Source of the DNA: Escherichia coli
GTDB taxonomy: Bacteria; Pseudomonadota; Gammaproteobacteria; Enterobacterales; Enterobacteriaceae
Reading direction: 5' to 3' (one strand)
Length of the DNA: 64,000 nucleotides
NCBI GenBank assembly: GCA_031701365.1
Contig: GCA_031701365.1_4118.1
The notes beneath the pieces were generated by a model that worked only from the letters and a program-made list of their open reading frames with translations, was not told the origin of the DNA and did not search any database. This document shows, piece after piece, positions 1 to 64,000 of the stretch. Position numbers and translations under genes: made by a program. Every line of letters starts with the position of its first letter. The first letter of the stretch is position 1.

Positions 1-88
1 GTATTCCACGCAGTAAGTACGAAAAAAGTAGTTGCCATTGATAGTAAAGTACTGTAATATAGTTTCATTAACTCAAGGAGTCAATACA

Positions 89-673
89 ATGCGTAACTAT
101 ACTAAATTCATCCGTTCACTTCATGCAATGGAAACTAATAAAGAGATCCTTACAGCTTGTCGGTTAGCTGGTCTGGAGATCGTCGGTGCGGGTTCTTCCC
201 GTATTGTATTCGCTTTAAATGATCGGTTAGTGATTAAGGTCGCTAATAGTGATGCTGGCGTAGATCAAAATGAAACTGAATGTAAGGTATGGAATTTTTT
301 AGATTATGACCGTCCGCACCTTAAACAGTACTTTGCAAAGGTGCATATGCATTTATGCGATCCTGATAATCTGTTTATTGTTATGGATCGTTTGAGTATT
401 GCAAGCAAAGGTAGTGCAAAGCACATAACGGCCTGTAATGAATTAAAGTACAATGCTAAACGTAAAACTATTGAACGCCAACACCATTTTGCCGATGCAC
501 TACAACACGTCGATGATACATTATCAACACTAACGATCATTGATATCAGCAAGACGAACATAGGCCAGGATCGCAACGGCTTGATTAAAGTACTTGATTA
601 CGGTTTAACCCGCAATATCTGGAATCAGTACTATAAAAAGCGTGATGTAAAAACCGTAACAATAACACGATAA
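89..673 (+). CDS. putative protein-kinase-fold protein (194 aa)
   Basis: Track ORF 32..673 trimmed to ATG 89 behind AAGGAG SD. Motifs GAGSSRIV (Gly loop), VIKV (Lys), DISKTNIG (D-x-K-x-x-N catalytic loop), LDYG (DFG-like). Confidence 0.55.
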   Translation: MRNYTKFIRSLHAMETNKEILTACRLAGLEIVGAGSSRIVFALNDRLVIKVANSDAGVDQNETECKVWNFLDYDRPHLKQYFAKVHMHLCDPDNLFIVMDRLSIASKGSAKHITACNELKYNAKRKTIERQHHFADALQHVDDTLSTLTIIDISKTNIGQDRNGLIKVLDYGLTRNIWNQYYKKRDVKTVTITR

Positions 674-685
674 AAAAGATTAAAA

Positions 686-715
686 AAGGGATTGACTCAG
701 GTCAGTCCCTTTGCT
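686..715 (+). terminator. rho-independent terminator-like hairpin
   Basis: Stem GGGATTGAC/GTCAGTCCC (one G.U), loop TCAG, followed by TTTGC; directly after the stop at 673. Confidence 0.55.
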
Positions 716-746
716 ATTATATATTCATTGAGAGATAACTCACTGA

Positions 747-770
747 CCCATAGGGTGCGGAAGTGTATCT
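747..770 (+). repeat. conserved intergenic box, copy 1 (CCCAYAGGGTGCRGA...TATCT)
   Basis: 19/24 nt identical to 2666..2689. Both copies lie between a terminator and an early promoter in homologous ~120-bp spacers. Confidence 0.6.
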
Positions 771-814
771 ATTATATAAGTATTCAGTACTGAAAACTAT
801 TTTATAAAAAGTAC

Positions 815-875
815 TTGCATTGTACTTAGAATCAAGTATAATGTTTTATATCGAGAGGGGGAAATGGTTCTCCCT
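815..875 (+). promoter_or_regulatory. early cassette P1: sigma70-type promoter + 5'UTR hairpin
   Basis: -35 TTGCAT 815-820, 16-nt spacer, -10 TATAAT 837-842, upstream AAAAAGTAC. Hairpin AGGGGGAA-ATGG-TTCTCCCT at 856-875. Confidence 0.7.
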
Positions 876-896
876 GGTACATTAAGGAATAAAATC

Positions 897-1118
897 ATGA
901 CTACGATGACTTGCGTTCACGCTTCAAATCTTCTGAATGATGCAGCATTTAAAGCAGGTGAAGAATATCAATGCTATCGGGATGAAAATAAAAAAGTTTT
1001 CGTCGTTGATGCTAACGGTTTCCATATTGAATTACAATCCGGCTTCACTGGTGTTGATGGTAAATCAGTATGGGGCGTACAGGACGATAACGGTACATAT
1101 CATTTTAAACGTAATTAA
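897..1118 (+). CDS. hypothetical small early protein (73 aa)
   Basis: Track ORF 864..1118 begins at an ATG inside the hairpin loop; trimmed to ATG 897 after AAGGAA SD. Confidence 0.7.
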   Translation: MTTMTCVHASNLLNDAAFKAGEEYQCYRDENKKVFVVDANGFHIELQSGFTGVDGKSVWGVQDDNGTYHFKRN

Positions 1119-1121
1119 GTA

Positions 1122-1180
1122 TTGACAAAGTATATCAGTACTGTATAATAGTTTACATCAAGGGGAGAATAGTTCTCCCC
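1122..1180 (+). promoter_or_regulatory. early cassette P2: promoter + 5'UTR hairpin
   Basis: -35 TTGACA 1122-1127, 16-nt spacer containing CAGTACTG, -10 TATAAT 1144-1149. Perfect hairpin GGGGAGAA-TAG-TTCTCCCC at 1162-1180. Confidence 0.75.
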
Positions 1181-1202
1181 ACCAATAAAAGGAAACAAAA
1201 TT

Positions 1203-1475
1203 ATGTCCAGCTACTCCGCTACTATGATTATTAAAGATATGAACGGTAATCCTACTTCTGCTGGTGGATCATTTGGTAACATTAACTTAGATGGTCGGTT
1301 ATCAATTGAATCAGCCATCAATGCCGCGAAAGAAGTTTTTAAGAATGAATGTACTGTAAGCAAGCTGGATTATATGGGCTTCGCTATCGAGAAAACTAAT
1401 CGTTTTGTGGACTACAAAAAACCACTGATGATCGATACTAACCTGAAAGCTAACGAAGTGGAATACTTATTATGA
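1203..1475 (+). CDS. hypothetical protein (90 aa)
   Basis: ATG after AAAGGAA SD, downstream of cassette P2. Confidence 0.75.
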   Translation: MSSYSATMIIKDMNGNPTSAGGSFGNINLDGRLSIESAINAAKEVFKNECTVSKLDYMGFAIEKTNRFVDYKKPLMIDTNLKANEVEYLL

Positions 1476-1663
1476 CAGTAGAAGAAGTTAAAAAAGTACT
1501 GGCAGTACTACGCTATCATAATCATTGTAAGGTGAAGAATGATCCTGATTATCTTGATTCATCGCTGGAAGAGGATACACTACAAGCAATAAGCCATATG
1601 CAAAAAATGCTTAAGCGTATGACCGAAAAGAATAGGCCGGACTATATAGGAAATAAAATTTAA
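1472..1663 (+). CDS. hypothetical protein (63 aa)
   Basis: ATGA start/stop overlap with the upstream gene (translational coupling). Confidence 0.7.
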   Translation: MTVEEVKKVLAVLRYHNHCKVKNDPDYLDSSLEEDTLQAISHMQKMLKRMTEKNRPDYIGNKI

Positions 1664-1670
1664 AAAGTAC

Positions 1671-1727
1671 TTGCATTGTAAGTAAAACAAAGTATAATGT
1701 TTTGCATAGGGGGAGATATCCTCCCCC
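1671..1727 (+). promoter_or_regulatory. early cassette P3: promoter + 5'UTR hairpin
   Basis: -35 TTGCAT 1671-1676, 16-nt spacer, -10 TATAAT 1693-1698. Hairpin GGGGGAG-ATATC-CTCCCCC at 1709-1727. Confidence 0.7.
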
Positions 1728-1746
1728 ACTAATAAGGAGTACTAAA

Positions 1747-1971
1747 ATGGCTAACTTTGATGAACTGATGCGGGAAGTAGCTACCCTGGCAGAAGAGAAG
1801 AAATCATTTGATTCTATCTATAACACCGCTTACAGTGATTCAGTACTGGCATGTACTCAGGATCAAAAAGATGAACTGATCGCCACCTATCATGAAGCAT
1901 GGAAGTATTACCGCCAATGGGAGAAAGAAGAAAGCGAGTCTACCATCAACGGCCTCAATAATCTAATCTAA
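1747..1971 (+). CDS. hypothetical protein (74 aa)
   Basis: Track ORF 1702 (non-ATG start upstream of the hairpin, reading through it) trimmed to ATG 1747 after AAGGAG SD. Confidence 0.75.
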   Translation: MANFDELMREVATLAEEKKSFDSIYNTAYSDSVLACTQDQKDELIATYHEAWKYYRQWEKEESESTINGLNNLI

Positions 1972-1981
1972 AGTTTTATTT

Positions 1982-2011
1982 CAGTACTATTATCATAGCG
2001 TGATAGTACTG
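1982..2011. repeat. inverted repeat CAGTACTAT-N12-ATAGTACTG
   Basis: 9-bp perfect arms at 1982-1990 and 2003-2011, each carrying AGTACT. Lies in the only early intergenic spacer lacking the standard promoter cassette. Confidence 0.6.
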
Positions 2012-2046
2012 TTGTGATAACTTTACTAACTACAAGGGGAAACATA

Positions 2047-2304
2047 ATGGAACAGTTTAAAACGTATCGGGTAAATCCAATCGCCACAGCCTACGTAGAA
2101 GACCATAAAACATTACCAGTACAGACACCAATCAAAGGCCGTATCTATCGTGCTATGCAGTGGAATAACGCCTATAATGGCTATAAAGCGGTATCCGCTG
2201 CAATGTACTTAGGGGATGGCGAATGGTTTGATCCAAATAATCCTGGTGCACTCGATAGTACTGAAAAAATGAAATGGGCCGACTATATCGAAGATATCTC
2301 ATAA
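2047..2304 (+). CDS. hypothetical protein (85 aa)
   Basis: Track ORF 2014 trimmed to ATG 2047 after AAGGGGA SD. Confidence 0.7.
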   Translation: MEQFKTYRVNPIATAYVEDHKTLPVQTPIKGRIYRAMQWNNAYNGYKAVSAAMYLGDGEWFDPNNPGALDSTEKMKWADYIEDIS

Positions 2305-2311
2305 AAACTAT

Positions 2312-2372
2312 TTGACAGTACTACAAGATAATGTATAATGTTTTACATAGAGCGGGGGAATAGTTCTCCCGC
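2312..2372 (+). promoter_or_regulatory. early cassette P4: promoter + 5'UTR hairpin
   Basis: -35 TTGACA 2312-2317, 16-nt spacer, -10 TATAAT 2334-2339. Hairpin GCGGGGGAA-TAG-TTCTCCCGC (one G.U) at 2352-2372. Confidence 0.75.
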
Positions 2373-2392
2373 ACCTTTAGGAGTAAAACATT

Positions 2393-2593
2393 ATGTCAAT
2401 CGCTAACGAATTGGTTGCAGTACTGAATGAAGCAAAAGCCAACTGCATCGATGTACAGATCAAAGAGCTTGGCAATGGCTTGATCGGCTGTACATGTTCA
2501 GTTCAAACGGCTACCGATTATCGGGAAGTGGAATCACTCGAATCACTGGTACGGTATATTAAAATCCTGGTAGAAGATTGGAGAATCATCTAA
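2393..2593 (+). CDS. hypothetical protein (66 aa)
   Basis: ATG after TAGGAG SD; terminator follows. Confidence 0.75.
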   Translation: MSIANELVAVLNEAKANCIDVQIKELGNGLIGCTCSVQTATDYREVESLESLVRYIKILVEDWRII

Positions 2594-2609
2594 CAAAAAA
2601 GAATAAAAA

Positions 2610-2640
2610 AAGGAGTTGACTTCGGTCCGCTCCTTTAGTA
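2610..2640 (+). terminator. rho-independent terminator-like hairpin
   Basis: Stem GGAGTTGAC/GTCCGCTCC (one mismatch, one G.U) with TTCG tetraloop, then TTT. Positional homolog of 686..715. Confidence 0.5.
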
Positions 2641-2665
2641 CTATATACGCATAGACAAAAACTAG

Positions 2666-2689
2666 CCCACAGGGTGCAGAGAAGTATCT
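2666..2689 (+). repeat. conserved intergenic box, copy 2
   Basis: CCCACAGGGTGCAGAGAAGTATCT; 19/24 identical to 747..770. Confidence 0.6.
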
Positions 2690-2766
2690 GTAAGATAGTT
2701 AATAACGGTGAGTAACTATCTGCTGGTGGATGTAATTCCAGTACTCAAAACTATTTCAAAAAAGTA

Positions 2767-2828
2767 TTGACAAAGTATAGCAGTACTGCAATAATGTATC
2801 TCGTAGGGCGGCAATGGTGCGACGGCCC
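2767..2828 (+). promoter_or_regulatory. early cassette P5: promoter + imperfect 5'UTR hairpin
   Basis: -35 TTGACA 2767-2772, 17-nt spacer with CAGTACTG, -10 AATAAT 2790-2795. GGGC...GCCC hairpin at 2806-2828 keeps the AATGG loop but has internal mismatches. Confidence 0.55.
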
Positions 2829-2848
2829 ACAAAGTTAGGAGCTTCATC

Positions 2849-3175
2849 ATGAGTACTTCAATCGCTATCGTTAAAGCTTTCATCCGTACCAATTTCGACC
2901 GCATTACTGTTGATGGTAATGATCGGGAAGTAGAATACTCTTTCATTGTTGCACAAACCGCAAACGGTGCACGCTATATCTTAAACGATAGTGAAGCTAA
3001 CCACTACTTCTATAATAAAGGATTACACTACATCCCTAGCGAAGTAGTCTACACTAAGATGAATAAGCTGGTAGACAAGATTAACGCTAAAGGTACTATC
3101 GATTTACAGTACTGGACCGAAACAGATCCAGAATACGGATCACATCGTTACCTGAATCCAGGTATTAAAATGTAA
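2849..3175 (+). CDS. hypothetical protein (108 aa)
   Basis: ATG after TAGGAG SD, downstream of cassette P5. Confidence 0.75.
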   Translation: MSTSIAIVKAFIRTNFDRITVDGNDREVEYSFIVAQTANGARYILNDSEANHYFYNKGLHYIPSEVVYTKMNKLVDKINAKGTIDLQYWTETDPEYGSHRYLNPGIKM

Positions 3176-3182
3176 AAAGTAC

Positions 3183-3244
3183 TTGCATAGTACTTAGAAT
3201 CAAGTATAATGTTTTACATAGAGAGGGGGAAATGGTTCTCCCTC
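3183..3244 (+). promoter_or_regulatory. early cassette P6: promoter + 5'UTR hairpin (near-duplicate of P1)
   Basis: -35 TTGCAT 3183-3188, 16-nt spacer, -10 TATAAT 3205-3210. Hairpin GAGGGGGAA-ATGG-TTCTCCCTC at 3223-3244. About 90% identical to 806-900 by eye. Confidence 0.75.
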
Positions 3245-3264
3245 CTAAATTAAGGAGTTTTATC

Positions 3265-3666
3265 ATGACCTTCTCAATCACTTCCTTCGCTGACGTTTTA
3301 GTACTGGCTCGGACTTTTGGTAAAGATGCACTGGAGTACGCTGTAAGTAATGGCACTCTCCAACCGGAACAATGCCGCATCATTGGAAACTGTAAACGTT
3401 GGGCGGTATCCAATACTATTGCACTAGAAAACTTCAACGATGGTAACAATGAGTATTCAGTTGATGCAGTATTCGAAGCCGTTGATCTTGGCGGTATCTA
3501 TAACACTAACCTAAATGATGTGCGTATCGTTCGCACGGGGTTCGGTGCTTATGATGTATCTATCCGTGAAGCTATGAACACCGGATACATTAGTAAGGAC
3601 TTACTTGCTCACATCATGCAGCTATGGACGGAACGTAACGAAGCACGCACTATCTTAGGACTATAA
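3265..3666 (+). CDS. hypothetical protein (133 aa)
   Basis: Track ORF 3232 starts at the hairpin-loop ATG; trimmed to ATG 3265 after AAGGAG SD. Confidence 0.75.
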   Translation: MTFSITSFADVLVLARTFGKDALEYAVSNGTLQPEQCRIIGNCKRWAVSNTIALENFNDGNNEYSVDAVFEAVDLGGIYNTNLNDVRIVRTGFGAYDVSIREAMNTGYISKDLLAHIMQLWTERNEARTILGL

Positions 3667-3690
3667 GCATTACACATCACCAAACATCAT

Positions 3691-3710
3691 AGGCCGCTCT
3701 CTAGCGGCCT
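3691..3710 (+). terminator. terminator-like hairpin (no strong U tract)
   Basis: Perfect stem AGGCCGCT/AGCGGCCT with loop CTCT, 25 nt after the stop. Confidence 0.45.
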
Positions 3711-3734
3711 TAACTATATCAGGAGGGCATACAT

Positions 3735-3944
3735 ATGTTCTATACAGTATACAGCGTTCTAGGTACGATTGCTGGCGTACATGATAACGTCGATGATGCT
3801 ATGCGTACAGTACTAACACAAGTCCCCCTCAAGCCTAAGACTGTTAAGCAGATGACAGCACGACTAACCAGGGCGGGCGATGGCGTGGAAGTATGGCAGG
3901 ACTACGGGGATACACAGATAATCGTTAGCGTAACGAAGGATTAA
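3735..3944 (+). CDS. hypothetical protein (69 aa)
   Basis: ATG after AGGAGGG SD. Confidence 0.7.
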   Translation: MFYTVYSVLGTIAGVHDNVDDAMRTVLTQVPLKPKTVKQMTARLTRAGDGVEVWQDYGDTQIIVSVTKD

Positions 3945-3972
3945 TGCGTAAAGGGATCTAGTACTGATTCAG

Positions 3973-4038
3973 AAAAAAGTCAAGGCGTTTTTAAAATTAT
4001 GCGTTAAAAAAATGCATAGGTAATCCCTTGACTTTTTT
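3973..4038. repeat. 13-bp inverted repeat AAAAAAGTCAAGG / CCTTGACTTTTTT
   Basis: Perfect arms at 3973-3985 and 4026-4038 with a 40-nt spacer. Embedded in the 250-bp non-coding spacer, which also has four TAAAGGG-type boxes and three ATGCGT motifs. Confidence 0.6.
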
Positions 4039-4135
4039 GAAATAAAAGGGATTGGACTATGGCAAAATGCGTAGGGGGCTAAAGGGCGGGTAACCTTAGC
4101 GACTTCGATAAAGGGGTATTACGAATAAAATGTTA

Positions 4136-4163
4136 TTGACTTTTTATACAATTCATATATTAT
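4136..4163 (+). promoter_or_regulatory. promoter of the family-A array
   Basis: -35 TTGACT 4136-4141, 16-nt spacer, -10 TATTAT 4158-4163. No other promoter-like site seen until ~9974. Confidence 0.55.
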
Positions 4164-4193
4164 ATGATTGATATTATTTTCAAGGGAGTCCCT

Positions 4194-4391
4194 ATGCGTA
4201 TTTTAACTCAAGCAGAACACCACGAAAGACTTATCAATAACATGGCTATGATAATGTATAAGTCACATGAACGTGGTATTGCCTATAAGCGTGAATTAAT
4301 TATGGCACTATTCATTGGAACTAACTTTCAGGAAAGGTATGTCAAGGATTGGATTTGGTATTTAATTGAAGATGTAACGAGTAAACTATGA
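4194..4391 (+). CDS. family-A small protein (GTNYQ motif), function unknown
   Basis: Track ORF 4164 trimmed to ATG 4194 after AAGGGAG SD; motif LFIGTNFQERYV; C-terminus SKL. Confidence 0.8.
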   Translation: MRILTQAEHHERLINNMAMIMYKSHERGIAYKRELIMALFIGTNFQERYVKDWIWYLIEDVTSKL

Positions 4392-4588
4392 AAATGCGTA
4401 AATTAACCGAAAAAGAATATCAATCACTGTTACGTAAAAACTACGTAAAGATTTACAATACAGACACACACGTAGAACGAATGGAGTTATACCTTTTGAT
4501 TACATTGGGAACTAACTATCAGGATGCATGGGTGATTCAATATATGGATGCATTGAAAAATGAAATATTGTCCACGAGGAAACAATGA
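4388..4588 (+). CDS. family-A small protein, function unknown
   Basis: ATGA overlap; motif LITLGTNYQDAWV. Confidence 0.8.
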   Translation: MKMRKLTEKEYQSLLRKNYVKIYNTDTHVERMELYLLITLGTNYQDAWVIQYMDALKNEILSTRKQ

Positions 4589-4794
4589 AAACTATAACAC
4601 GAACCCAATCATTCGGACTTATCTTGAAATACATGGACTTAATGGTGGATATCAGCAAAGACCTGCCTAAAACTGCAATTGAAGTTGCAAGAGCAGAGAT
4701 CCGCATGTTGGCTGTACTGAACACAAACCATCAGGAAGAGTATGTTGACGATTGGATTCGATTTTTAATAGAAGATATTAAGAGTAAACTATGA
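4585..4794 (+). CDS. family-A small protein, function unknown
   Basis: ATGA overlap; motif LAVLNTNHQEEYV; C-terminus KSKL. Confidence 0.8.
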   Translation: MKTITRTQSFGLILKYMDLMVDISKDLPKTAIEVARAEIRMLAVLNTNHQEEYVDDWIRFLIEDIKSKL

Positions 4795-5003
4795 TTATAT
4801 TAACACCTGAAGAATATAAGAAACGTTTTAAATCTGTCCAGGCTGAAATATTACTTATATACCTTTCAAATGCAGATCTTAACTTATCAAGGGTAATGGA
4901 GAAGGATTTACTTATGGGTGCATTTTTGGATACAGACTTTCAGGAGTATTATGTAGGAGAATACTTTATTGCACTTCAGAACCACATTAAGAGTAAACTA
5001 TGA
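4791..5003 (+). CDS. family-A small protein, function unknown
   Basis: ATGA overlap; motif GAFLDTDFQEYYV; C-terminus KSKL. Confidence 0.8.
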   Translation: MIILTPEEYKKRFKSVQAEILLIYLSNADLNLSRVMEKDLLMGAFLDTDFQEYYVGEYFIALQNHIKSKL

Positions 5004-5215
5004 TTATTCTAGAAAAATCATATCAATATACTGAACGCATCGCTGCCAGACAACTTGAAATCCTCATAATATACGAAGAGACTTCTGATTTAAACTTAGC
5101 CGAGGTATTGGAAAATGAAATACTTTTGGGTGCATTCTTGGGAACAGACTATCAGGAGTATTATGAGGAAAAGTATTTGTCATCTCTTGAGAAATACGTC
5201 AGGAGCAAACTATGA
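5000..5215 (+). CDS. family-A small protein, function unknown
   Basis: ATGA overlap; motif GAFLGTDYQEYYE. Confidence 0.8.
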   Translation: MIILEKSYQYTERIAARQLEILIIYEETSDLNLAEVLENEILLGAFLGTDYQEYYEEKYLSSLEKYVRSKL

Positions 5216-5439
5216 AACATTTAAGTAATATAGAGAAGAATAAAATTATCATTGCTGTAATAAACAAATATTTTACACTTCCACAAAAAGAATGTTTATC
5301 TATAAGGGAACACAGGATAAACACCACCGAGATTCGCATGTTGGCTGTACTGGGGACTAACTTCCAAGAAGGCTATGTTCATGAGCACATCGTTGCACTC
5401 ACTAATTACATAATGGACAAATGTAATGAACATCATTAA
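5212..5439 (+). CDS. family-A small protein, function unknown
   Basis: ATGA overlap; motif LAVLGTNFQEGYV. Confidence 0.8.
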   Translation: MKHLSNIEKNKIIIAVINKYFTLPQKECLSIREHRINTTEIRMLAVLGTNFQEGYVHEHIVALTNYIMDKCNEHH

Positions 5440-5650
5440 TAACTTTGAATACGAGGCCCGTGCTAAGAGTGCCAGAAAAAAAGAGAACACCATTTACTTC
5501 ACTATGATGTACTTACAATGGACTGAGATTGAAGAAAAGGTTGCTGAAGTATGGATGTTGGAATTCATGGGGACGCAGTATCAGAATAGGTTTGCGGGTG
5601 AGTATATCAATGTTCTTATGAAACAAATAGAAAGAAAGGAAAAGAACTAA
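5426..5650 (+). CDS. family-A small protein, function unknown
   Basis: Motif LEFMGTQYQNRFA. Confidence 0.8.
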   Translation: MNIINNFEYEARAKSARKKENTIYFTMMYLQWTEIEEKVAEVWMLEFMGTQYQNRFAGEYINVLMKQIERKEKN

Positions 5651-5808
5651 TGGTTTTCATTAACATATCTGACCAACTCGATACTAAACTAAAAGTCGAG
5701 AAGAGTGAGGGATGGATGCTGTACTTTCTTGGAACTTCTCATCAGAATTTTTATATCCATGAACACATAGTTGCACTCACAAATCTAATAAGGGATAAAT
5801 GCAAATGA
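5650..5808 (+). CDS. family-A small protein (52 aa, below ORF-track cutoff)
   Basis: Read by hand: TAATG overlap at 5650, MVFINISDQLDTKLKVEKSEGWMLYFLGTSHQNFYIHEHIVALTNLIRDKCK, stop TGA 5806-5808. Confidence 0.7.
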   Translation: MVFINISDQLDTKLKVEKSEGWMLYFLGTSHQNFYIHEHIVALTNLIRDKCK

Positions 5809-6062
5809 AACACTTAACACAAGATGAATATTCACTTAGAATTCGAAAGCTCACCCCAGAAGCAAGAGTAATCTACGATGACGATGCACTTTCATGGAAC
5901 GAGATGAAAGTTAAAGTTCATGAGCTATGGTTGCTGTACTTTGTGGGAACCCAATATCAAGAGAAATATTGTACCGATTATCTTGAACAACTAATGGATC
6001 TTATACAGATAAAACTAAATGAACGAATTGTGGAAAAATATGAAAACTTTATCAAGCACTGA
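5805..6062 (+). CDS. family-A small protein, function unknown
   Basis: ATGA overlap at 5805 (track start 5799 also possible); motif LYFVGTQYQEKYC. C-terminus extended past the usual IKL end by a 1-nt difference at ~6015. Confidence 0.75.
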   Translation: MKHLTQDEYSLRIRKLTPEARVIYDDDALSWNEMKVKVHELWLLYFVGTQYQEKYCTDYLEQLMDLIQIKLNERIVEKYENFIKH

Positions 6063-6291
6063 GTATCAAACTGCCCTCTTCTCCCTTCTAAACACTCTCC
6101 GCACGAACAATAAACTTTATAATTCCCGTGAAGCTGATATTGTCAACGGTGAACTTTATCTTATGAAATTCATTGGAACAAACTATCAAGATCTGTTCAT
6201 TCAACGATACCTGGCAGCATTGAGAAACGAAATATCAGATAAAACCCGCCAAGCCAGAAGAGAATGGAAGAAACAATGCGACAAAGACTAA
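6040..6291 (+). CDS. family-A small protein, function unknown
   Basis: Family-typical N-terminus MKTLSSTEY at 6040 (track start 6019 possible); motif MKFIGTNYQDLFI. Confidence 0.7.
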   Translation: MKTLSSTEYQTALFSLLNTLRTNNKLYNSREADIVNGELYLMKFIGTNYQDLFIQRYLAALRNEISDKTRQARREWKKQCDKD

Positions 6292-6527
6292 ATCACAAAA
6301 TGTATTGTAAACTATTACAGAATCTGGGACAAAAACACTATGATACAGTATCTGAAATATTACCCTATGATATCATGCGTTTAATTCATAGTGAGGCAGA
6401 GATGCTTGTACTGATGACAGGCACTGATAAAACAGCAATTACCAAATCTATAGATATGTTCATCGATGCACACTGCCAACACATTAGAACCGAGATATGG
6501 AGACGTGAGAATGAAAATCCTGACTGA
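6264..6527 (+). CDS. family-A small protein, divergent copy
   Basis: Motif position reads LVLMTGTDKTAIT; alternative start 6276 (MRQRL). Confidence 0.65.
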   Translation: MEETMRQRLNHKMYCKLLQNLGQKHYDTVSEILPYDIMRLIHSEAEMLVLMTGTDKTAITKSIDMFIDAHCQHIRTEIWRRENENPD

Positions 6528-57347: not shown

Positions 57348-57352
57348 TAATT

Positions 57353-57632: not shown

Positions 57633-57860
57633 ATGAAAGTAATTCAAGTTATGGTAGAAAAATACCAAACTGAAGATGGTCGTATTTTTGATTCAGCTAA
57701 ACAAGCTGAACACCATGAACGTATTATTTCGGGTGCACGTAAAGTGTGTCCTACATGTAGTGGAACACAACAAGTACCGTCAGAAGATTACCGCAGCTTT
57801 TATGCTTGTCCACACTGTGATGGGAAAGGCTATGTAGAAAAACAAGAGGTATGGAAATGA
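57633..57860 (+). CDS. DnaJ-type zinc-finger mini-protein (75 aa)
   Basis: CPTCSGTQ and CPHCDGKG (CxxCxGxG repeats). Confidence 0.6.
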   Translation: MKVIQVMVEKYQTEDGRIFDSAKQAEHHERIISGARKVCPTCSGTQQVPSEDYRSFYACPHCDGKGYVEKQEVWK

Positions 57861-58270
57861 AATTGTATTGCTTAACTAATATGTACTGTCAAGGTGTCCA
57901 AGCTGGTATTCAAGCATTCCATGCTGGTGTTAAACTAATTAAAGAATATGAAGGTACTGCTTTCAGTACTATTATTGATGAATGGTACTATGAACACGAA
58001 ACTATTGTAGTACTAAATGCTGGTGGACATGATAAATTAAATTCTTATTATAACAACCTTAGCAAACAGGGGAAAGTTCCGTTTGCCAAATTCAATGAAG
58101 CTGGGTTGAATGATGCTATTACCTGTGTAGCAGTACTGTGTACGTCTGAAATGATTGAAGACATGGCTGTTATGCGTATGAATCTTCCTGCTGGTGATCA
58201 ACTAATGCAAGTAAAATATGGTGCATTGTTTGACACACTAAAAGCAATCAGTACAATGAGGACTATTTGA
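57857..58270 (+). CDS. PTH2-like (peptidyl-tRNA hydrolase 2 fold) protein
   Basis: ATGA overlap at 57857 (track start 57851). QAGIQAFHAGV, W..E.TIVVLN and VPFAKFNEAGLNDAITCVAVL parallel archaeal/eukaryotic Pth2 blocks (AAQxxHAAV, W...KIVLK, LPxxxIxDAG.T....T.TxLxIGP). Confidence 0.5.
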   Translation: MKLYCLTNMYCQGVQAGIQAFHAGVKLIKEYEGTAFSTIIDEWYYEHETIVVLNAGGHDKLNSYYNNLSKQGKVPFAKFNEAGLNDAITCVAVLCTSEMIEDMAVMRMNLPAGDQLMQVKYGALFDTLKAISTMRTI

Positions 58271-59469
58271 TGGATTTTCCAGAGAAGTTATTTGTTGCAC
58301 GTTCCTATGTAAACCACAACCAAGTTGATGGTTTTATTATCGATGCAACAAAATCACATACAAAAGCGTTTGAAACAAAGAAAGAGAGAGCAGAGTACTG
58401 GGCAAAGAAGAACAATCTTCCATCGTTATATATTGACAACGTTCCAACTACTGGATTTTGTGTAGTTGATAAATTAACAATTCATGCACGAGAAACATAT
58501 TTCACAATCCGTCACCCAGAAGGATTTGAATTTATGATTAGTGCCAAAAACATGAATGATTTAATTATCAATAACGATATAATCAAAGGTGTTTTTGTAG
58601 ACCCAATGTTTTTCAACAATAACTTAGAATTAATTAATGGTAAAACAAAAACATTTGCTAAGTTAGTTGAAAAAGAAAATAAAAAAGAACAACAAAAAGA
58701 AACTGTAGCAGGTCTTAAAGTTGGTGATGGTTTCACGTATCTCAAAGAAGATTACTATTACTGCGGTAAAGTACATGCAATTTGTATAAAGAAAACTAAA
58801 GAATTTGCATACCCCGACAAAAGTTCTGTTTATCATTTACTTTTTAACAGTACTCGTGGAACTTATGCATTGAATCAACGTTTGGATAATTACAATCTTG
58901 AACCTCGTGCACTCTTGAATAAGAAGACTACGGCAGATGAAGAAATTAAACTTGCTAATGAATTTTGGCAAAGCTATAGAACAAACAGACATAACCCATT
59001 AGGTGAATCTAACATTCCAGTACTGGTACACAATAAATCATTTAAAGCAAAAGACCTAAAAATTAAATATGAAGAAATAAATGTTGATGATCTTATGAAT
59101 AATGGACGTTTCAACGAGAACGTACCATTTATGACTAAAGATAATGAACAATCTTATCGCGTATTTTTTGGTGTAAGTAATAATACAACACGTAGTTATT
59201 ATGGACGTAGCGGGGATTATAATATTCATTATAATGATAAATTTGAACGCTTTAGTGCATACCCAGTTCAAATTGATGATAATGGAATTATGTCAATGGA
59301 TGTTGATATTAATGAGCACACATCATTTAGTACATGGAACGGTTATCGTTCACCATTCTTTCCACCAAATGAACGAAAAACATCAAGTTCTCGTTACTAC
59401 CAAGATAAGCCGTGTCACGTTCAACTATCAATTAGTAATCCACTTTATATTGGAAAGTATTATCTATAA
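58270..59469 (+). CDS. hypothetical protein (399 aa)
   Basis: TGATG overlap at 58270 (track TTG 58267); no recognisable motif. Confidence 0.75.
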   Translation: MDFPEKLFVARSYVNHNQVDGFIIDATKSHTKAFETKKERAEYWAKKNNLPSLYIDNVPTTGFCVVDKLTIHARETYFTIRHPEGFEFMISAKNMNDLIINNDIIKGVFVDPMFFNNNLELINGKTKTFAKLVEKENKKEQQKETVAGLKVGDGFTYLKEDYYYCGKVHAICIKKTKEFAYPDKSSVYHLLFNSTRGTYALNQRLDNYNLEPRALLNKKTTADEEIKLANEFWQSYRTNRHNPLGESNIPVLVHNKSFKAKDLKIKYEEINVDDLMNNGRFNENVPFMTKDNEQSYRVFFGVSNNTTRSYYGRSGDYNIHYNDKFERFSAYPVQIDDNGIMSMDVDINEHTSFSTWNGYRSPFFPPNERKTSSSRYYQDKPCHVQLSISNPLYIGKYYL

Positions 59470-59480
59470 AGGAATATACA

Positions 59481-60899
59481 ATGAGCATTTTAGCAATTCT
59501 TGAAAGCATTAAAAATACTAGCAGTACTCTAGGCAAAAAAGCTATTCTTGAACAAAATAAAGATAATGTAACTTTGCAAAAAGTACTGAAATATACACTC
59601 GATCCTAGTATTGTAAGTGGGTATAAAAAGCTACCAGACGCTGATAACGTGTATCAACATATGACATTGGATGAAGCTATTGATAAACTAGAATGCATCT
59701 ATAAGCGTGCATTGACGGGACATACAGGGCGTGATTTCATTGCTTCAGTACTAGGTAGTGTGAGTCCAGATGATGCTGAAGTTCTTCGTAAGATGCTTAC
59801 AAAGAACTTAGATTGTGGTATTCAAGAAAAGAACTGCAATGATGTATTTGGTAAAGGATTTATTAAAGATGAACCATATATGCGTTGTTCTTTGCTTGAT
59901 AAAAAGACTGTTAAGAACATCAACTTCAAAGGTCATGGTTATGCTGTCTCCGAGGTCAAGATGGATGGTCAGTACTTAAACCATGTAGTCATTAATGGTG
60001 CTCTTACCTCTTCCTCCCGTAATGGTAAACTATATGACTTCTTAGGTTGTCGTGATGGTGAGATGGCAGGTCTTGCACATCAAATTCAAATGAATGATGA
60101 ACGTTTTAGTAGTGGTGTCGTCTTTATGGGTGAAGGTCTAGTACTTGATAATGACGGTGAAACTATTCTTCCACGAACAACTGGTAATGGTATCATTCAG
60201 AAGGCTGGTAAAGATAGTATTAGTCAGAATGAAGCAATGCGTACTGTATTTGTACTATGGGATGTTGTTCCGTATGATGCATTCTGTGAAGGTACATGGA
60301 ATGTAAAACGTAAAGAACGTCGCGAACTTCTTGAATCTGCCATCAATGTATTGGGTAGTGATTTTGTACGTATGGTGAAATACCGTAAGGTTCAAAACAT
60401 TAAAGAAGCATTTGAGTACAATAACGAACTCATGGTTCAGGGTGAAGAAGGATCAGTACTGAAATGTGAAGATGGTATCTGGAAATCACATACATCTCCT
60501 AAGCAGTTGAAAGTAAAACTAAAAATGCAATTGGATTTGCGTATTGTTGGTTTCAACGAAGGTGAAGGTAAGCGTAAAGGTTCACTTGGTTCTTTACAAC
60601 TTGAAAGTGCATGTGGCACACTGAAGGTAAATGTAGGAACAGGTATTAAAGAGAAAGATGCAGAGTGGACGTTCAAAACCATTTGGGAACGAATGCAAGA
60701 ACTAATTGGTAAAGTCGTTACCGTTGAGTGCAATGAGATTGTAATCGACAAGCGTACAGGTGAACCATCACTATTTTTACCAGTGTTTATTGAATTTAGA
60801 TTTGACAAGAACACATGTGACGATTATACTCGTATTTTAGAAATTCGTGATAGTGCTGTTGAGGTATTCTCGAACAGTATCATTGAAGCACTTAGCTAA
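59481..60899 (+). CDS. ATP-dependent DNA ligase (T4 gp30-like)
   Basis: 472 aa. The N-terminus ILAILESIKNTSSTLGKKAILEQNKDN parallels T4 ligase. Motif I is EVKMDGQ; EGSVLK, LKVKL and a C-terminal OB region follow. Confidence 0.92.
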   Translation: MSILAILESIKNTSSTLGKKAILEQNKDNVTLQKVLKYTLDPSIVSGYKKLPDADNVYQHMTLDEAIDKLECIYKRALTGHTGRDFIASVLGSVSPDDAEVLRKMLTKNLDCGIQEKNCNDVFGKGFIKDEPYMRCSLLDKKTVKNINFKGHGYAVSEVKMDGQYLNHVVINGALTSSSRNGKLYDFLGCRDGEMAGLAHQIQMNDERFSSGVVFMGEGLVLDNDGETILPRTTGNGIIQKAGKDSISQNEAMRTVFVLWDVVPYDAFCEGTWNVKRKERRELLESAINVLGSDFVRMVKYRKVQNIKEAFEYNNELMVQGEEGSVLKCEDGIWKSHTSPKQLKVKLKMQLDLRIVGFNEGEGKRKGSLGSLQLESACGTLKVNVGTGIKEKDAEWTFKTIWERMQELIGKVVTVECNEIVIDKRTGEPSLFLPVFIEFRFDKNTCDDYTRILEIRDSAVEVFSNSIIEALS

Positions 60900-60918
60900 T
60901 CATTTATTGGAGGTAATT

Positions 60919-61710
60919 ATGAAATTTGTTGTAACATCTGACGTACACGGTGGAACTGATTACCTCCATAGCGGTGATTACAGTGATGTAGTACTGATCA
61001 TTGCTGGTGACTTTGATGAAGTTAAACGCAGTCGTTATCGTACTGGGATCGAAGAACTGTGTAAGCAGTTCTATAAGGTAGTACTGGTTCCAGGAAATCA
61101 CGAATACTACGGTTCCAATATCCAAAAGACGCATCAAGTACTATCCAATATGCAGGATGAGATTCCTAATTTTATCTTTTTGCAAAACAAATTTGTATGG
61201 CTGGATGGAGTACTGCTTGTTGGTAGTACTCTGTGGACAGACTTCGATAAAGGTAATTCTTTGACGAAGTTTGATGCTCGTCAGAAGATGAACGATTACA
61301 AACATATCCGTCATGGAACAACATCAGAGCCTTGGCGTAAGAAACTGACACCTGATGATACTGAGTTTATGCATCACAAAGATAAACAATTTATCAAAAA
61401 TTCTATTGACACAGTTCGCTTTATGCATGATAATGATTTCAAGGTCATCGTGATTACTCATCACGCACCAAGTTATCAAAGTGTTTCACCAAAATATAAA
61501 AATGATTCACTAAATGGTTGTTACTGTTCCGATATGGATCAGTACATTGAAGATTTGGGTGCTGATGTTTGGATTCATGGTCATGTTCATAGTAGCTTTG
61601 ACTACCACATTGGTAAGACACGTATCATTTGTAATCCACGAGGCTATGAATCGTATAGTGGAGCTTGTGAGAATTTTGATTACAATCCTAAATTTGTATT
61701 TGAAATTTAA
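60919..61710 (+). CDS. calcineurin-like metallophosphoesterase
   Basis: Track ORF 60847 trimmed to ATG 60919 after GGAGGT; SDVHGG, AGDFDE, GNHEYY, THHAP, HGHVH motifs. Confidence 0.85.
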   Translation: MKFVVTSDVHGGTDYLHSGDYSDVVLIIAGDFDEVKRSRYRTGIEELCKQFYKVVLVPGNHEYYGSNIQKTHQVLSNMQDEIPNFIFLQNKFVWLDGVLLVGSTLWTDFDKGNSLTKFDARQKMNDYKHIRHGTTSEPWRKKLTPDDTEFMHHKDKQFIKNSIDTVRFMHDNDFKVIVITHHAPSYQSVSPKYKNDSLNGCYCSDMDQYIEDLGADVWIHGHVHSSFDYHIGKTRIICNPRGYESYSGACENFDYNPKFVFEI

Positions 61711-61722
61711 TGTGAGGATACA

Positions 61723-62106
61723 GTGTCATTGATTTATTTTGAACTACCAGAATATACCAATTATCCAAGCCGAGTTATTTGCTCAGTTTATAGTAATGCA
61801 TATCATCACTTGTTAGTGAATAGTAATAAAGCTGTGCATTATTATCGAAATAAAGAACCACGTACATTAAAGAATCGTTATGGTTTTGACCCAACTAACA
61901 CTGAAGTTGAACTCTGTGATCTGTTTGGGGAAGTAATGGTGGTGTTGAAACGAGATATTCATCTTTTCCATACATACAAACTTAATCAGTACTTTATGGA
62001 AACACTGTCTATACGTTCCCATGCTCCGATGATTAAAGTTGATTTGAATTTTGTTGATGATAAATTGAAATATGATTTCATAAATTCACTTGTTTATTTG
62101 GAGTAA
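61723..62106 (+). CDS. hypothetical protein (127 aa)
   Basis: GTG start 4 nt after GAGGA. Confidence 0.55.
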   Translation: MSLIYFELPEYTNYPSRVICSVYSNAYHHLLVNSNKAVHYYRNKEPRTLKNRYGFDPTNTEVELCDLFGEVMVVLKRDIHLFHTYKLNQYFMETLSIRSHAPMIKVDLNFVDDKLKYDFINSLVYLE

Positions 62107-62107
62107 T

Positions 62108-62512
62108 ATGAATATACGTTCAGTACGAATATTTTCATTTGTTGATATGAATGAAAAACACTCTTATGTGTTTGAAACTGTCAATAAGTTAAATCCTCAT
62201 ACGGCAAAAATGATTGAAACCATGAAGATCTTGAGTTTGCATATAGAAGTTTACTATCTTCATGACGATTCTGTTTTTGTATATGATGATGGATGGTATG
62301 ACGGTGTGTTTTATGATGACATTAGCACTACTGCTGATTACTACTTTCTAGTGAGTAACCCACTATTCAGTACTAAAACTTTGTTTGACATTACCGATAC
62401 AAGCGTGTATGATACAAGTCATGTTGAGTTACTTAAGTTTGATCCAGTATTATTCAACAAAGAAACGGCGTATTGGATGACTGATTTCTTTTCAAATATT
62501 CCAGTAAAATAG
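62108..62512 (+). CDS. hypothetical protein (134 aa)
   Basis: Track ORF 62090 trimmed to ATG 62108 after GGAG. Confidence 0.65.
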   Translation: MNIRSVRIFSFVDMNEKHSYVFETVNKLNPHTAKMIETMKILSLHIEVYYLHDDSVFVYDDGWYDGVFYDDISTTADYYFLVSNPLFSTKTLFDITDTSVYDTSHVELLKFDPVLFNKETAYWMTDFFSNIPVK

Positions 62513-62513
62513 T

Positions 62514-62542
62514 TTGGACATTTTAAATCTTAGTGATATAAT
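62514..62542 (+). promoter_or_regulatory. extended -10 promoter upstream of clpP
   Basis: -35 TTGGAC 62514-62519, 17-nt spacer ending AGTGA, -10 TATAAT 62537-62542. Confidence 0.6.
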
Positions 62543-62576
62543 ACTCACTACAACGAAATAATAGAGGAAATTAACA

Positions 62577-63272
62577 ATGGTTGAACAATTCATGTTTGGT
62601 GGTTATGCTAATGGCGAAGTACGTAACATTTCTATTCCTTACGTAGTTGAGAAAGTTAATGGTTCAGAACGTACATATGATCTAGCATCTCGTATGATGC
62701 AAGACCGTATCATTTTCCTTGATACTGATTTCAATGATCAAATGGCACATATCATCAAACAACAATTGGTGTGGTTAGACTCACAAGGTGATTCCCCTAT
62801 TACATTCTACATTAGTTCACCAGGTGGTTCAGTACACGCAGGTTTGGGTATTGCAGACGTTGCTAAGTCTTGTATTTCCCCAATCCGCACTGTAGTTATG
62901 GGTTATGCGGCATCAATGGGTTGCTATACACAATCTGTTATTGGAACTAAAGGTTTCCGTTTAGGTGGTAAACGCTCATACTTCATGTGTCACCAAGTAA
63001 GTTCTGGTACACAAGGTCTAATTACAGACCAGAAGATTTCCCTACAACATTCTGATGCACTGAATACATTGTTGACCAAAGAAATTGCAGAAGCAGTAGG
63101 CGTATCACATGAACAATTACTAAAAGATGCTGACCGCGATTTGTGGTTAAATGCAGAAGAAGCACTTGAATATGGTGAACATGGTTTCATTGATGGTATT
63201 ATTCTTGGACCACGTAACGAAGAAGGCAAGTACTTAGTTAAGCGTCGCGGCGGTGTGGAAGAGTGGGTGTAA
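62577..63272 (+). CDS. clpP: ATP-dependent Clp protease proteolytic subunit (ClpP family)
   Basis: RIIFL...SSPGGSV...GYAASMG (Ser), MCHQVSSG (His), DRDLWLNAEEALEYG (Asp). All three catalytic residues are present. Confidence 0.9.
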   Translation: MVEQFMFGGYANGEVRNISIPYVVEKVNGSERTYDLASRMMQDRIIFLDTDFNDQMAHIIKQQLVWLDSQGDSPITFYISSPGGSVHAGLGIADVAKSCISPIRTVVMGYAASMGCYTQSVIGTKGFRLGGKRSYFMCHQVSSGTQGLITDQKISLQHSDALNTLLTKEIAEAVGVSHEQLLKDADRDLWLNAEEALEYGEHGFIDGIILGPRNEEGKYLVKRRGGVEEWV

Positions 63273-63281
63273 GATAGATTT

Positions 63282-63310
63282 TGATGCCTCAATATGGGGC
63301 ATCATCTTTG
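63282..63310 (+). terminator. terminator-like hairpin
   Basis: Stem TGATGCC/GGCATCA, 9-nt loop, then TCTTTG. Confidence 0.45.
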
Positions 63311-63320
63311 TGGAGATTAT

Positions 63321-63611
63321 ATGAAAGTACTAGTACGTAATAATACGGAAGTAGCAAATGTATTAGAAGATTCCGATTTTATTAATGTTGCGTTCGATCA
63401 AATTAGTGCAGTAGCACTTGAGTTAAAAAATGTGGATGAATCTGAGCGTGTACTAAATGGTTTTGCAATTGTACTTGAATTAATGAAAGAAGTACTAATT
63501 AAAAAGAACATTAATCCAGTTGATGCGGTTCAACATGCAGAAGCTGTGCGTAAAGAACACGGTACATTCTCTGACAAAAAATACATTCAAACTGATGAGG
63601 TAAAAGAATAA
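63321..63611 (+). CDS. hypothetical protein (96 aa)
   Basis: Track ORF 63294 crosses the hairpin; trimmed to ATG 63321 after GGAG. Confidence 0.65.
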   Translation: MKVLVRNNTEVANVLEDSDFINVAFDQISAVALELKNVDESERVLNGFAIVLELMKEVLIKKNINPVDAVQHAEAVRKEHGTFSDKKYIQTDEVKE

Positions 63612-63612
63612 T

Positions 63613-64000
63613 ATGTCCAATGCACAATATAAAGATGGTTATGACGCATACAAAGCAAAAGTAGTTCTAAGTGCTGAACAGCTAAAAATGCAGCATCCAT
63701 TATATCGTCAGGGCTATCGTGCAGCACAAGCAGAAGCAATGAAGAAAAATAATGTAACTTTCCCTACTACGCTATATGATATTCCAAAACGTCCACACAT
63801 TTTTAAAGCTGAATGGACTGATATTATGGCAGCGACAAAGCGTCCACGTTTTGCTAAATTACACACCGATGAAGGTCGCTGGTTGCTAATGGGGATTATG
63901 AAAGCAGTTGAGAATCAATCTCATAAGATTGTTCGTTATAAAGATGTTGTTGCTATGGTTGATAAAGCATTTGACCTTGTACTTCAATATGGTTATGATG
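63613..64000 (+). CDS. hypothetical protein, 3'-truncated by the window end
   Basis: Read by hand: ATG 63613 just after the upstream TAA; open for 129 codons to the window edge (MSNAQYKDGYDAYKAKVVLSAEQLKMQH...). Confidence 0.6.
   Translation, partial: MSNAQYKDGYDAYKAKVVLSAEQLKMQHPLYRQGYRAAQAEAMKKNNVTFPTTLYDIPKRPHIFKAEWTDIMAATKRPRFAKLHTDEGRWLLMGIMKAVENQSHKIVRYKDVVAMVDKAFDLVLQYGYD

Follow-up and report, generated by a model that had tools for sequence, protein, structure and literature searches.

The question raised by this locus, a 64,000-nucleotide stretch of DNA deposited as Escherichia coli (assembly GCA_031701365.1, contig GCA_031701365.1_4118.1; the whole stretch is hereafter referred to as the window), is why a single six-base palindrome, AGTACT, should be written into it so often. 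The window belongs to an Asteriusvirus (121Q/PBECO4-like) jumbo coliphage: megablast gives 92–98% identity to phages 121Q, PBECO4, G17, SP27 and Sharanji, and 63.0 of the 64 kb can be aligned to Sharanji, at 96.5% identity. Its G+C content is 33%, and the + strand holds nearly all genes. AGTACT is the top hexamer of the window (n = 200), accompanied by 537 copies of its core GTAC and 44 of the extended form CAGTACTG. This excess is genuine and strongly selected, and is apparently an undescribed genome signature of the Rak2-like jumbo phages. The reading that I favour, tentatively and with somewhat less than even confidence, is that AGTACT, weakly extended to CAGTACTG, serves as a recognition site on duplex DNA for a protein encoded by this clade, which is probably dimeric and possibly has a cognate methyltransferase at its side.

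The size of the excess was determined against several null models. The expected number of copies in the window is 20–21 from base composition, 16.6 from an order-1 Markov (dinucleotide) model, 37 at order 2 and 77 at order 3, the last of which already includes the excess of GTAC. Shuffling synonymous codons within each gene, which preserves the proteins and the codon usage of the gene, yields 48 ± 6 copies in open reading frames (ORFs), compared to the 174 observed there (z ∼21). The excess therefore amounts to 9–12-fold when set against base composition and dinucleotides, and to 3.6-fold under the most conservative null, the codon-preserving shuffle. An earlier reading of the sequence by eye (the original prediction) had put it at about 20-fold; the excess is real, but this figure holds only in the densest parts of the window, namely 1–3965 and 8401–10634, at 21–22 times expectation. 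The ratio stays well above 1 under the exact hexamer count and the Markov and codon-shuffle nulls, and an explanation by codon-pair usage is thus refuted. The individual sites listed at the time were accurate: positions 48, 327, 589, 627, 786 and 810 are all exact, nine sites do lie in 19141–20160, the promoter-spacer and AAAAAGTACTTG contexts are present, and an intergenic inverted repeat carries sites at 1983 and 2005.

It had also been proposed that selection acts on the DNA word and not on a peptide, and several lines of evidence uphold this. The sites are found in all three reading frames (76, 39 and 59 copies) and in non-coding DNA, as had been claimed, with 26 further sites outside the + strand ORFs and a non-coding density of about 4 per kb. 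Synonymous opportunities for the word are close to saturation, being taken in 40–90% of cases overall. The dipeptide S-T is written AGT-ACT in 56/92, 13/14, 3/3 and 3/5 cases in the different parts of the window, where independent codon use predicts about 15%; the context x-V-L uses AGTACT in 41–88% of opportunities, and [Q/E/K]-Y followed by a codon starting with T in 29–50%. This is a property of the genome at large, as 200 kb of replication, structural and metabolic genes from Sharanji contain 337 copies, compared to 95 ± 9 after synonymous shuffling, and write S-T as AGT-ACT in 195 of 370 cases.

Comparison between genomes points the same way. When the window is aligned to Sharanji, 185 of 197 sites are intact, compared to 168 ± 5 for frame-matched random hexamers, and divergence at third codon positions is 1.45% inside the sites and 6.0% outside, a difference of about four-fold. 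Turnover is balanced, with 12 gains and 12 losses. In six orthologous genes of the Pectobacterium phage CBB, which belongs to a different genus and whose proteins are 33–61% identical, 6 of 18 window sites are at the same aligned codon (chance 0.07). Outside the immediate word there is little to see: the flanks carry information only at positions −1 and +1, at about 0.33 bit each, with C at −1 in 44–45% of sites and G at +1 in 45–47%.

AGTACT is the commonest hexamer of the entire 350-kb Sharanji genome (902 copies, 7.6-fold enriched, with CAGTACTG at 58 times expectation), and its density there is about 6 per kb in the terminal repeat, 5 per kb in the adjoining region and 2 per kb elsewhere. 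Enrichment is also found in CBB (Mimasvirus; 266 copies in 50 kb, 16-fold, with flanks A..T), RaK2 (Alcyoneusvirus; 58 copies in 25 kb, 7-fold) and the Salmonella phage Munch (98 copies in 30 kb, 9.8-fold), and the distant Pseudomonas relative PA5oct is depleted, with one copy where 8 are expected. The enrichment is a trait of the clade, independent of host genus.

This enrichment stands on a background of palindrome avoidance, a contrast that had been drawn from the general habit of phages and that is strengthened here. In Sharanji, GCGC does not occur (292 expected), and zero counts are found for 22 of the 64 six-base palindromes (533 expected in total), including GGTACC and CGTACG, which share the GTAC core. 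GCGC is likewise missing from the window (46 expected), RaK2 and Munch, and is normal in PA5oct. Among the palindromic tetramers, only GTAC and TGCA are well above expectation; ACGT and CATG are at expectation and the others are depleted. Host restriction might lie behind the purge, as might a phage nuclease from which the phage's own DNA is spared. Since 22 of 64 palindromes are purged and some 900 copies of AGTACT are kept, some function of the phage must need this word at the highest density that coding permits, and 900 copies of one palindrome on such a background are very hard to see as neutral. Full-text searches for AGTACT or GTAC in these phages turned up no paper on the motif, and a jumbo-phage review from 2026 is silent on it.

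The word is not spread evenly. The original prediction had supposed a similar density throughout the window, which is wrong: there are no sites in 3961–8400 or in 10635–18205, and outside these two blocks the density declines along the window, from about 7 to about 3 per kb. The two site-free blocks had been overlooked, as had the fact that the larger one is free of every ACT. A sequencing or assembly artefact is excluded, as six independently sequenced genomes, up to 13% diverged, show them. The position of the window in the genome had also been missed. The ends of the G17 record form an exact direct terminal repeat of 20,668 bp, whose inner boundary maps to window 4096|4097; positions 1–4096 are therefore repeat DNA and unique sequence begins with base 4097, so that the window sits at the inner edge of a 20.7-kb terminal repeat. 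This agrees with the redundancy of about 20 kb published for G17 (PMC6563267) and with the 20,668-bp repeat published for Sharanji (PMC11895373). The start of the Sharanji record, which maps near the boundary of blocks D and E (see Table 1 for the blocks), was considered as a physical genome end and rejected, since it is arbitrary and the repeat lies at about 15.8–36.4 kb of that record.

Two further features of the repeat were observed. At its very end, window 3316–3988, a stretch of 672 bp is devoid of TTT and has a G+C content of 0.43–0.48, a composition unlike that of its surroundings; it is kept in 121Q, SP27, G17 and TH47. In addition, the E. coli Chi octamer GCTGGTGG is 15–35-fold over-represented, with window copies at 1260, 2722, 50094 and 58019, and is clustered in a single orientation within the terminal repeat (9 versus 1 in Sharanji; 7 versus 2 in CBB, positions 9311–21020), such that active Chi would be met by RecBCD entering from the right genome end.

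It is in the early promoters of the terminal repeat that the placement of AGTACT is most regular. The G17 repeat contains 132 copies and 36 strong sigma70-type promoters, 34 of which have AGTACT no more than 75 bp upstream of the −10 hexamer. Two arrangements recur. In the first (n = 18), AAAAAGTAC directly precedes TTGCA(A/T), and AGTACT overlaps the upstream edge of the −35 element, its start lying at −27 from the first base of the −10; in the second (n = 17), TTGACA-N9-AGTACT-G-TATAAT, it ends 1–2 bp before the −10, starting at −7 or −8. Several promoters carry both positions, 20 bp apart, and this accounts for a modest excess of AGTACT pairs at 18–23 bp. Outside the terminal repeat, only 4 of 18 comparable promoters contain the word. 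In the window, the promoter copies are those at 810, 1137, 1666, 2782 and 3178. Near-consensus sigma70 promoters occur about once per 570 bp in the G17 repeat (1–20668, reverse strand; the window part being 692–3200), often after repeated terminator hairpins.

In this co-located set, fixed positions of AGTACT overlap the −35 or adjoin the −10, as is found for operators. The arrangement is operator-like, although duplication clearly relates the promoters to one another. Three mechanisms had been offered for the word, a binding or nicking site, a target for DNA modification, and a packaging or condensation signal. The promoter architecture favours a binding site, and nothing supports a role in nicking or condensation.

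The larger site-free block (block D) has a specific cause: AGTACT is missing from it because the whole trinucleotide ACT is absent from the sense strand. About 136 copies of ACT would be expected on the + strand and none is present (Poisson ∼1e-59), while its complement AGT is normal; the next largest gap between ACT trinucleotides in the window is 494 bp. The ban spans all frames and the intergenic parts. Threonine is encoded by ACT in 0 of 97 cases, compared to 42% in neighbouring paralogs, and NAC codons are followed by T in 0 of 111 cases, compared to 24%. TCT and CTC are also about three-fold low (the latter by a rough correction for missing ACT-containing words), and ACA and ACG show normal levels. 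Nothing like the block exists elsewhere in the 350-kb genome, where no other ORF is free of ACT. Its ACT-free length is 7,511 bp in 121Q, 7,632 bp in SP27, 7,649 bp in both G17 and Sharanji, and 6,976 plus 1,130 bp in TH47, which is 13% diverged. Munch possesses its own, shorter version (1,955 bp), in which a TCT-free stretch and raised AGTACA recur. The first 50 kb of CBB contain no such block, and a search of IMG/VR for more divergent loci returned only 121Q itself. In the four versions of the boundary (window 10629, SP27 16840, TH47 20504 and Munch 13610), the last ACT before the ACT-free block sits in (A/T)GTACT, for which chance is about 0.4%; this is suggestive, but weak.

With regard to the proteins encoded in block D, Pfam and PHROGs identified only clade-specific families without assigned function. 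Some of its genes are paralogs of a neighbouring family of 120–200-residue proteins, which has at least 18 members by BLASTP (window 18043–28438 and 9597–9941, plus ORFs of block D) with the common motif [E/D]-x-x-[F/Y]-F-Q-x-S-[T/L]-V some 70% of the way along each protein; the block D genes carry this motif too.

Within block D the demand for the word persists in altered form. GTAC is still three-fold enriched there, and the next base is A in 56 of 64 cases and never T. AGTACA is present in 39 copies (14-fold), spread over the three frames and retaining the C and G flanks, at the density that AGTACT has elsewhere; AGTACG and AGTACC have one copy each. Sixteen copies of AGTACA are in the S-T reading frame and the block contains 18 S-T dipeptides, and nearly all S-T is therefore written AGT-ACA. 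Compared to TH47, 23 copies are kept, 11 lost and 8 gained de novo, the gains being always AGTACA and never AGTACT. AGTACA cannot be a silent relic, since two of the frames need other amino acids for it than for AGTACT. Block D thus displays two superimposed constraints, a local strand-specific ban on ACT and a genome-wide demand for a GTAC-centred word that tolerates, as a second choice, an A/T swap at one of the two outer positions. This tolerance fits a symmetric site on duplex DNA with one half-site weakened, and is hard to reconcile with AGUACU acting merely as a cleavage site in RNA.

The smaller desert, block B, is of another kind. It extends over about 4.2–4.3 kb and starts exactly at the boundary of the terminal repeat, with the first unique base. 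GTAC is at the level of base composition there (11 copies, 13.6 expected), and 0 of 15 synonymous opportunities for AGTACT are used, which fits neutrality (about 13% expected) and not the 40–90% seen elsewhere. The family of ∼70-residue paralogs that fills it continues into 8300–9607, where 9 copies of AGTACT are found in 1.3 kb (about 7 per kb). That block B is a young duplication array can be rejected, since its 25 paralogs are only about 36% identical and the members in block C are rich in sites; age does not, therefore, explain the difference between the two blocks. Eight copies of TGTACT are present in block B, all in paralogous codon contexts. I also considered whether blocks B (TGTACT only) and D (AGTACA only) could be mirror-polar signals of the Chi or KOPS type around an origin in block C. 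This was rejected: block D is explained by a ban on every ACT, the TGTACT copies of block B lie in paralogous codons, block B has no word ban by its own Markov expectation, and the region of block C is coding.

Table 1. Positions of the AGTACT sites, blocks, promoters and related features in the window.
Feature	Position	Strand	Details
AGTACT, 200 copies	48..63496	.	Exact count; extended consensus (C)AGTACT(G)
Terminal-repeat end	1..4096	+	Early genes, sigma70-type promoters; 27 AGTACT (∼7/kb), 13 of them non-coding
Early promoter, AAAAAGTAC joined to TTGCAT	805..845	+	Site 810–815 overlaps upstream edge of −35; further copies at 1666 and 3178
Early promoter, TTGACA-N9-AGTACT-G-TATAAT	1122..1149	+	Promoter scan; site 1137–1142
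Intergenic inverted repeat, CAGTACTATTATCA-TAGCG-TGATAGTACTG	1983..2010	.	One AGTACT per arm (1983, 2005), 22 bp apart
Early promoter, TTGACA-N9-AGTACT-G-TATAAT architecture	2767..2795	+	Site 2782
Block B	4097..8400	+	0 AGTACT, 0 AGTAC; tandem array of ∼70-residue paralogous genes
Block C, dense	8401..10634	+	16 AGTACT (∼7/kb)
Block D	10633..18135	+	7,504 bp without ACT on sense strand; ∼15 co-oriented genes
Tandem AGTACAGTACAGTACA	14318..14333	+	Encodes QYSTVH of paralog-family motif; S-T as AGT-ACA, not AGT-ACT
Block E	18206..24000	+	32 AGTACT (5.5/kb); paralogous genes of 120–180 residues, same family as several block D genes
Block F	24001..64000	+	125 AGTACT (3.1/kb, 9.3-fold); early and metabolic genes including Rnl1, Pnkp, DNA ligase, ClpP
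Dam-family (PF05869) N6-adenine DNA methyltransferase	42192..42713	+	Pfam E = 6.6e-32

The sequences show the excess of the word, the selection at the DNA level, the conservation across genera, the architecture of the promoters and the tolerance of AGTACA where ACT is forbidden. In the reading that I favour, a dimeric DNA-binding protein of the phage clade would read AGTACT, possibly alongside a cognate methyltransferase. The core and its flanks are both symmetric, as a dyad. Selection has driven AGTACT to nearly every position that coding permits, which implies that its function depends on site density genome-wide; the word may thus serve as a genome-wide mark or coat of the phage DNA, similar in kind to the HIP1 palindrome of cyanobacteria. 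Since it also lies on the −35 edge or just upstream of the −10 in almost every early promoter of the terminal repeat, a bound protein would control early transcription as well. The reader would be a phage-encoded protein acting on duplex DNA, whose binding may repress early promoters, or mark or protect the DNA.

The Dam-family methyltransferase of the window, which has orthologs in CBB and Munch, is a candidate enzyme for marking GTAC or AGTACT, and the excess of GTAC and TGCA amid depleted palindromic tetramers would fit protective methylation. The publication describing Sharanji lists an adenine methyltransferase, a second methyltransferase and a HaeIII-type modification methylase (PMC11895373). 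Digestion with ScaI or RsaI, or methylation calling at AGTACT, would provide a one-day test for DNA modification.

A number of points weigh against a protein-bound duplex site. A Pfam search over the 144 ORFs of the window identified no helix-turn-helix or other DNA-binding domain, and so no candidate reader, which keeps confidence in this mechanism limited. The homologs of the methyltransferase gave no indication of its specificity, the closest outside the clade being only about 43% identical. Some sites lie at the conserved FQxSTV and xSVLEG motifs of a large paralog family; a lower divergence inside the sites would also be expected from biased repair; and symmetric flanks arise automatically for any signal selected on both strands. 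The stereotypy of the promoters and their 20-bp spacing could partly reflect duplication of a cassette, and not operator function. Finally, a duplex-site model does not explain the 4.3 kb without sites beside the repeat boundary.

The main rival, which I consider unlikely but the most serious of the alternatives, is that the word is a start site for primase. A T4-type primase (gp61 homolog) would recognise 5'-ACT-3', and a pentaribonucleotide primer (pppGUACU, with a cryptic T in addition) would be templated best by AGTACT, the palindrome giving start sites on both strands; in block D, priming would be abolished on the + strand and kept on the − strand, through TGTACT. This links the motif to the ACT ban, and explains the ban elegantly. 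A strand-specific ban on a single trinucleotide has the format of known primase recognition (GTT or GCT for T4, GTC for T7, CTG for DnaG), ACT is one base from the T4 site GCT, homologs of gp61 and gp41 are encoded by RaK2, the length of AGTACT equals a 5-nucleotide primer plus one cryptic base, and the substitution in block D affects the very base that, on the opposite strand, would serve as template for the final nucleotide of the primer. However, ACT alone occurs about 18–20 times per kb, or about every 50 nucleotides, and enrichment of a hexamer would not be needed. The non-palindromic GTACT is only about 1.75-fold enriched (from counts), compared to 7.6-fold for the palindrome, and the sixth base in block D is A in 95% of cases, which a 5-nucleotide requirement does not predict. 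Nor does the model predict that density rises towards the terminal repeat or that promoter positions are fixed, and no enrichment of primase sites is known for T4 or T7.

A second alternative places the signal in RNA, with AGUACU as a preferred target of an ACU-specific endoribonuclease or RNA-binding protein, such that early mRNAs are switched off quickly and those of block D are immune; T4 RegB, which cuts GGAG in early mRNAs, would be the analogue. The palindrome is present in RNA whichever strand is transcribed, it is densest in early regions, block D lacks ACU in the sense strand of every gene and in its intergenic parts, and the last ACT before the block lies inside (A/T)GTACT at each boundary. 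On the other hand, this gives no reason for AGUACA to be 14-fold enriched in block D, to saturation and at the cost of amino-acid changes, and fixed sites also lie ahead of the transcription start, in promoter DNA that is not transcribed. The enrichment extends to late structural genes, and the Pfam search over the window ORFs identified no RNase domain. I regard this explanation as improbable.

About equally improbable is a neutral origin, in which functionless sites accumulate because a methyltransferase protects AGTACT from the purge, or because repair of the very-short-patch type converts near-cognate words to it. In keeping with this, other palindromes are purged while GTAC and TGCA are spared, and methyltransferases are encoded (the Dam-family enzyme of the window, and the three listed for Sharanji). 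Biased repair is a documented shifter of oligonucleotide frequencies in E. coli; it has also been discussed for HIP1 (PMC4390886, PMC5861425). Yet escape from a purge would lead to a ratio near 1, not 8–16-fold, and the single-substitution neighbours of AGTACT are not depleted, with the exception of AGGACT at 0.46. A genome-wide drive would not predict that one paralog family has no sites in block B and 7 per kb in block C, nor could a drive towards AGTACT produce the AGTACA that is gained de novo in block D and nearly saturates its S-T dipeptides (16 versus 18).

That the word serves to recruit or titrate a protein of the Enterobacterales host, such as the nucleoid-occlusion factor SlmA (site GTGAGTACTCAC) or LexA, is very improbable. 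The core of the SlmA site is identical to AGTACT, and Escherichia, Salmonella, Klebsiella and Pectobacterium phages have the trait, which the Pseudomonas phage PA5oct lacks. However, the outer GT...AC that is conserved around this core in SlmA sites is not a feature here: GTNAGTACTNAC has no copy in the window and two in the 350 kb of Sharanji, and G is the least frequent base at −1. The flanks also vary by genus, being C..G here and A..T in CBB, and the 18-bp spacing of a LexA box is not the spacing that the sites prefer, so that both proteins were rejected, on flanks and spacing. Lastly, a coding artefact, whether from codon-pair usage, amino-acid composition or copies of a conserved peptide in paralogs, can practically be dismissed: about 13 sites do lie beside the FQ motif of the family with at least 18 members, and sites are most frequent at 50–80% of ORF length, but this is refuted by the shuffles of the window (48 versus 174) and of non-paralogous core genes (95 versus 337), by sites in all frames and in non-coding DNA, and by enrichment of the same word in genera that share only 33–61% protein identity over six genes.

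The ACT ban of block D itself needs a strand-specific reader, three bases wide, for which an ACU-specific endoribonuclease, a primase and a single-strand DNA endonuclease are candidates. As all genes of block D are co-oriented, sequence alone cannot separate readers of RNA from readers of DNA. ACT is missing along the sense strand of entire transcription units, the pattern that immunity to an mRNA interferase would leave. Of the known E. coli toxins, MazF cuts ACA, ChpB ACD and MqsR GCU (PMC12151602); since ACA and ACG are not avoided in block D, neither MazF nor ChpB fits. The window also encodes a T4-type RNA repair set, consisting of RNA ligase 1 and a polynucleotide kinase-phosphatase (50010–51152 and 52249–53181), plus a match to PTH2-like peptidyl-tRNA hydrolase in one further ORF, which hints that the phage expects attack by the host at the RNA level.

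It is possible, although I hold it doubtful, that the Rak2-like jumbo phages carry two layers of sequence, a clade-wide AGTACT mark read by a phage protein and, embedded in it, an operon of about 15 genes recoded without ACU. If so, infected cells would contain an active ACU-specific endoribonuclease, be it a defence toxin of the host or a shut-off enzyme of the phage, while the operon is still translated; alternatively, a ban at the DNA level, through a primase or single-strand nuclease, would programme one strand of 7.5 kb to remain unprimed or uncut. The ACT-free block offers an independent lead, pointing to an enzyme of trinucleotide specificity that is active on RNA or single-stranded DNA in the infected cell, and singles out some 15 genes that the phage shields, in their expression or integrity, at a coding cost that can be seen.

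Among known systems, the nearest to block D are the ACA-less mRNAs that escape MazF, and the avoidance of ACA in RNA phages (PMC12151602), where a sequence free of a word is likewise immune to a strand-specific reader of 3–4 nucleotides. T4 RegB (GGAG) and the trinucleotide recognition of primases share the strand-specific reading of a short word. Unlike the MazF and RegB cases, the word avoided in block D is ACU only, with ACA and ACG normal. I know of no natural multi-gene operon that is free of a trinucleotide; if the two-layer reading is correct, this one would be the natural counterpart of the engineered ACA-less 'single protein production' trick.

For AGTACT itself, restriction enzymes provide the identical words, namely ScaI (AGTACT), RsaI (GTAC) and TatI (WGTACW), and the AGTACA of block D matches a degeneracy of the WGTACW type. 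Phages, however, deplete restriction targets, whereas here the target is 7.6–16-fold enriched, and no restriction enzyme gene is linked to it; the case reverses the usual rule by which phages purge short palindromes. Chi, KOPS and DNA uptake sequences are also short, over-represented words, selected at about 1 per kb or more and acting as DNA and not via the protein that they encode, but these are asymmetric and strand-skewed, while AGTACT is palindromic. The bias between AGTACA and TGTACT does not make it a polar motif, as it is a codon-related bias of the sense strand that flips with gene orientation.

A parallel for the promoter part is phage SPO1, in which the protein TF1 has preferred sites overlapping the early promoters of the terminal redundancy and also binds along the genome. 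SPO1 is likewise a large virulent phage whose long direct terminal repeat is packed with host-takeover genes and strong host-type promoters. TF1, in contrast, is of the HU type, depends on hydroxymethyluracil DNA and has a loose sequence preference, and neither an HU-like gene nor a modified base is known for the present phage. The identity of its reader would reveal how a 350-kb jumbo phage that does not form a nucleus marks, organises or regulates its genome. The word is also a compact diagnostic of the clade in metagenomes.

As a genome-wide word, AGTACT resembles HIP1 (GCGATCGC) of the cyanobacteria (PMC5861425, PMC4390886), which is also a hyper-abundant short palindrome, found in all frames and in intergenic DNA and conserved between genomes by selection and not through neutral replenishment. 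AGTACT shows the same over-representation, the same presence in all frames and intergenic DNA beyond codon use, and conservation above the neutral expectation, and orphan methyltransferases are the suspected partners of both words. The differences are that AGTACT is six bases long, AT-rich and unrelated in sequence, that it is viral and not cellular, that its enrichment is 8–16-fold where that of HIP1 is 15–300-fold, and that it is built into early promoters at fixed positions. With its reader identified, it would offer a tractable viral model for the HIP1 problem.

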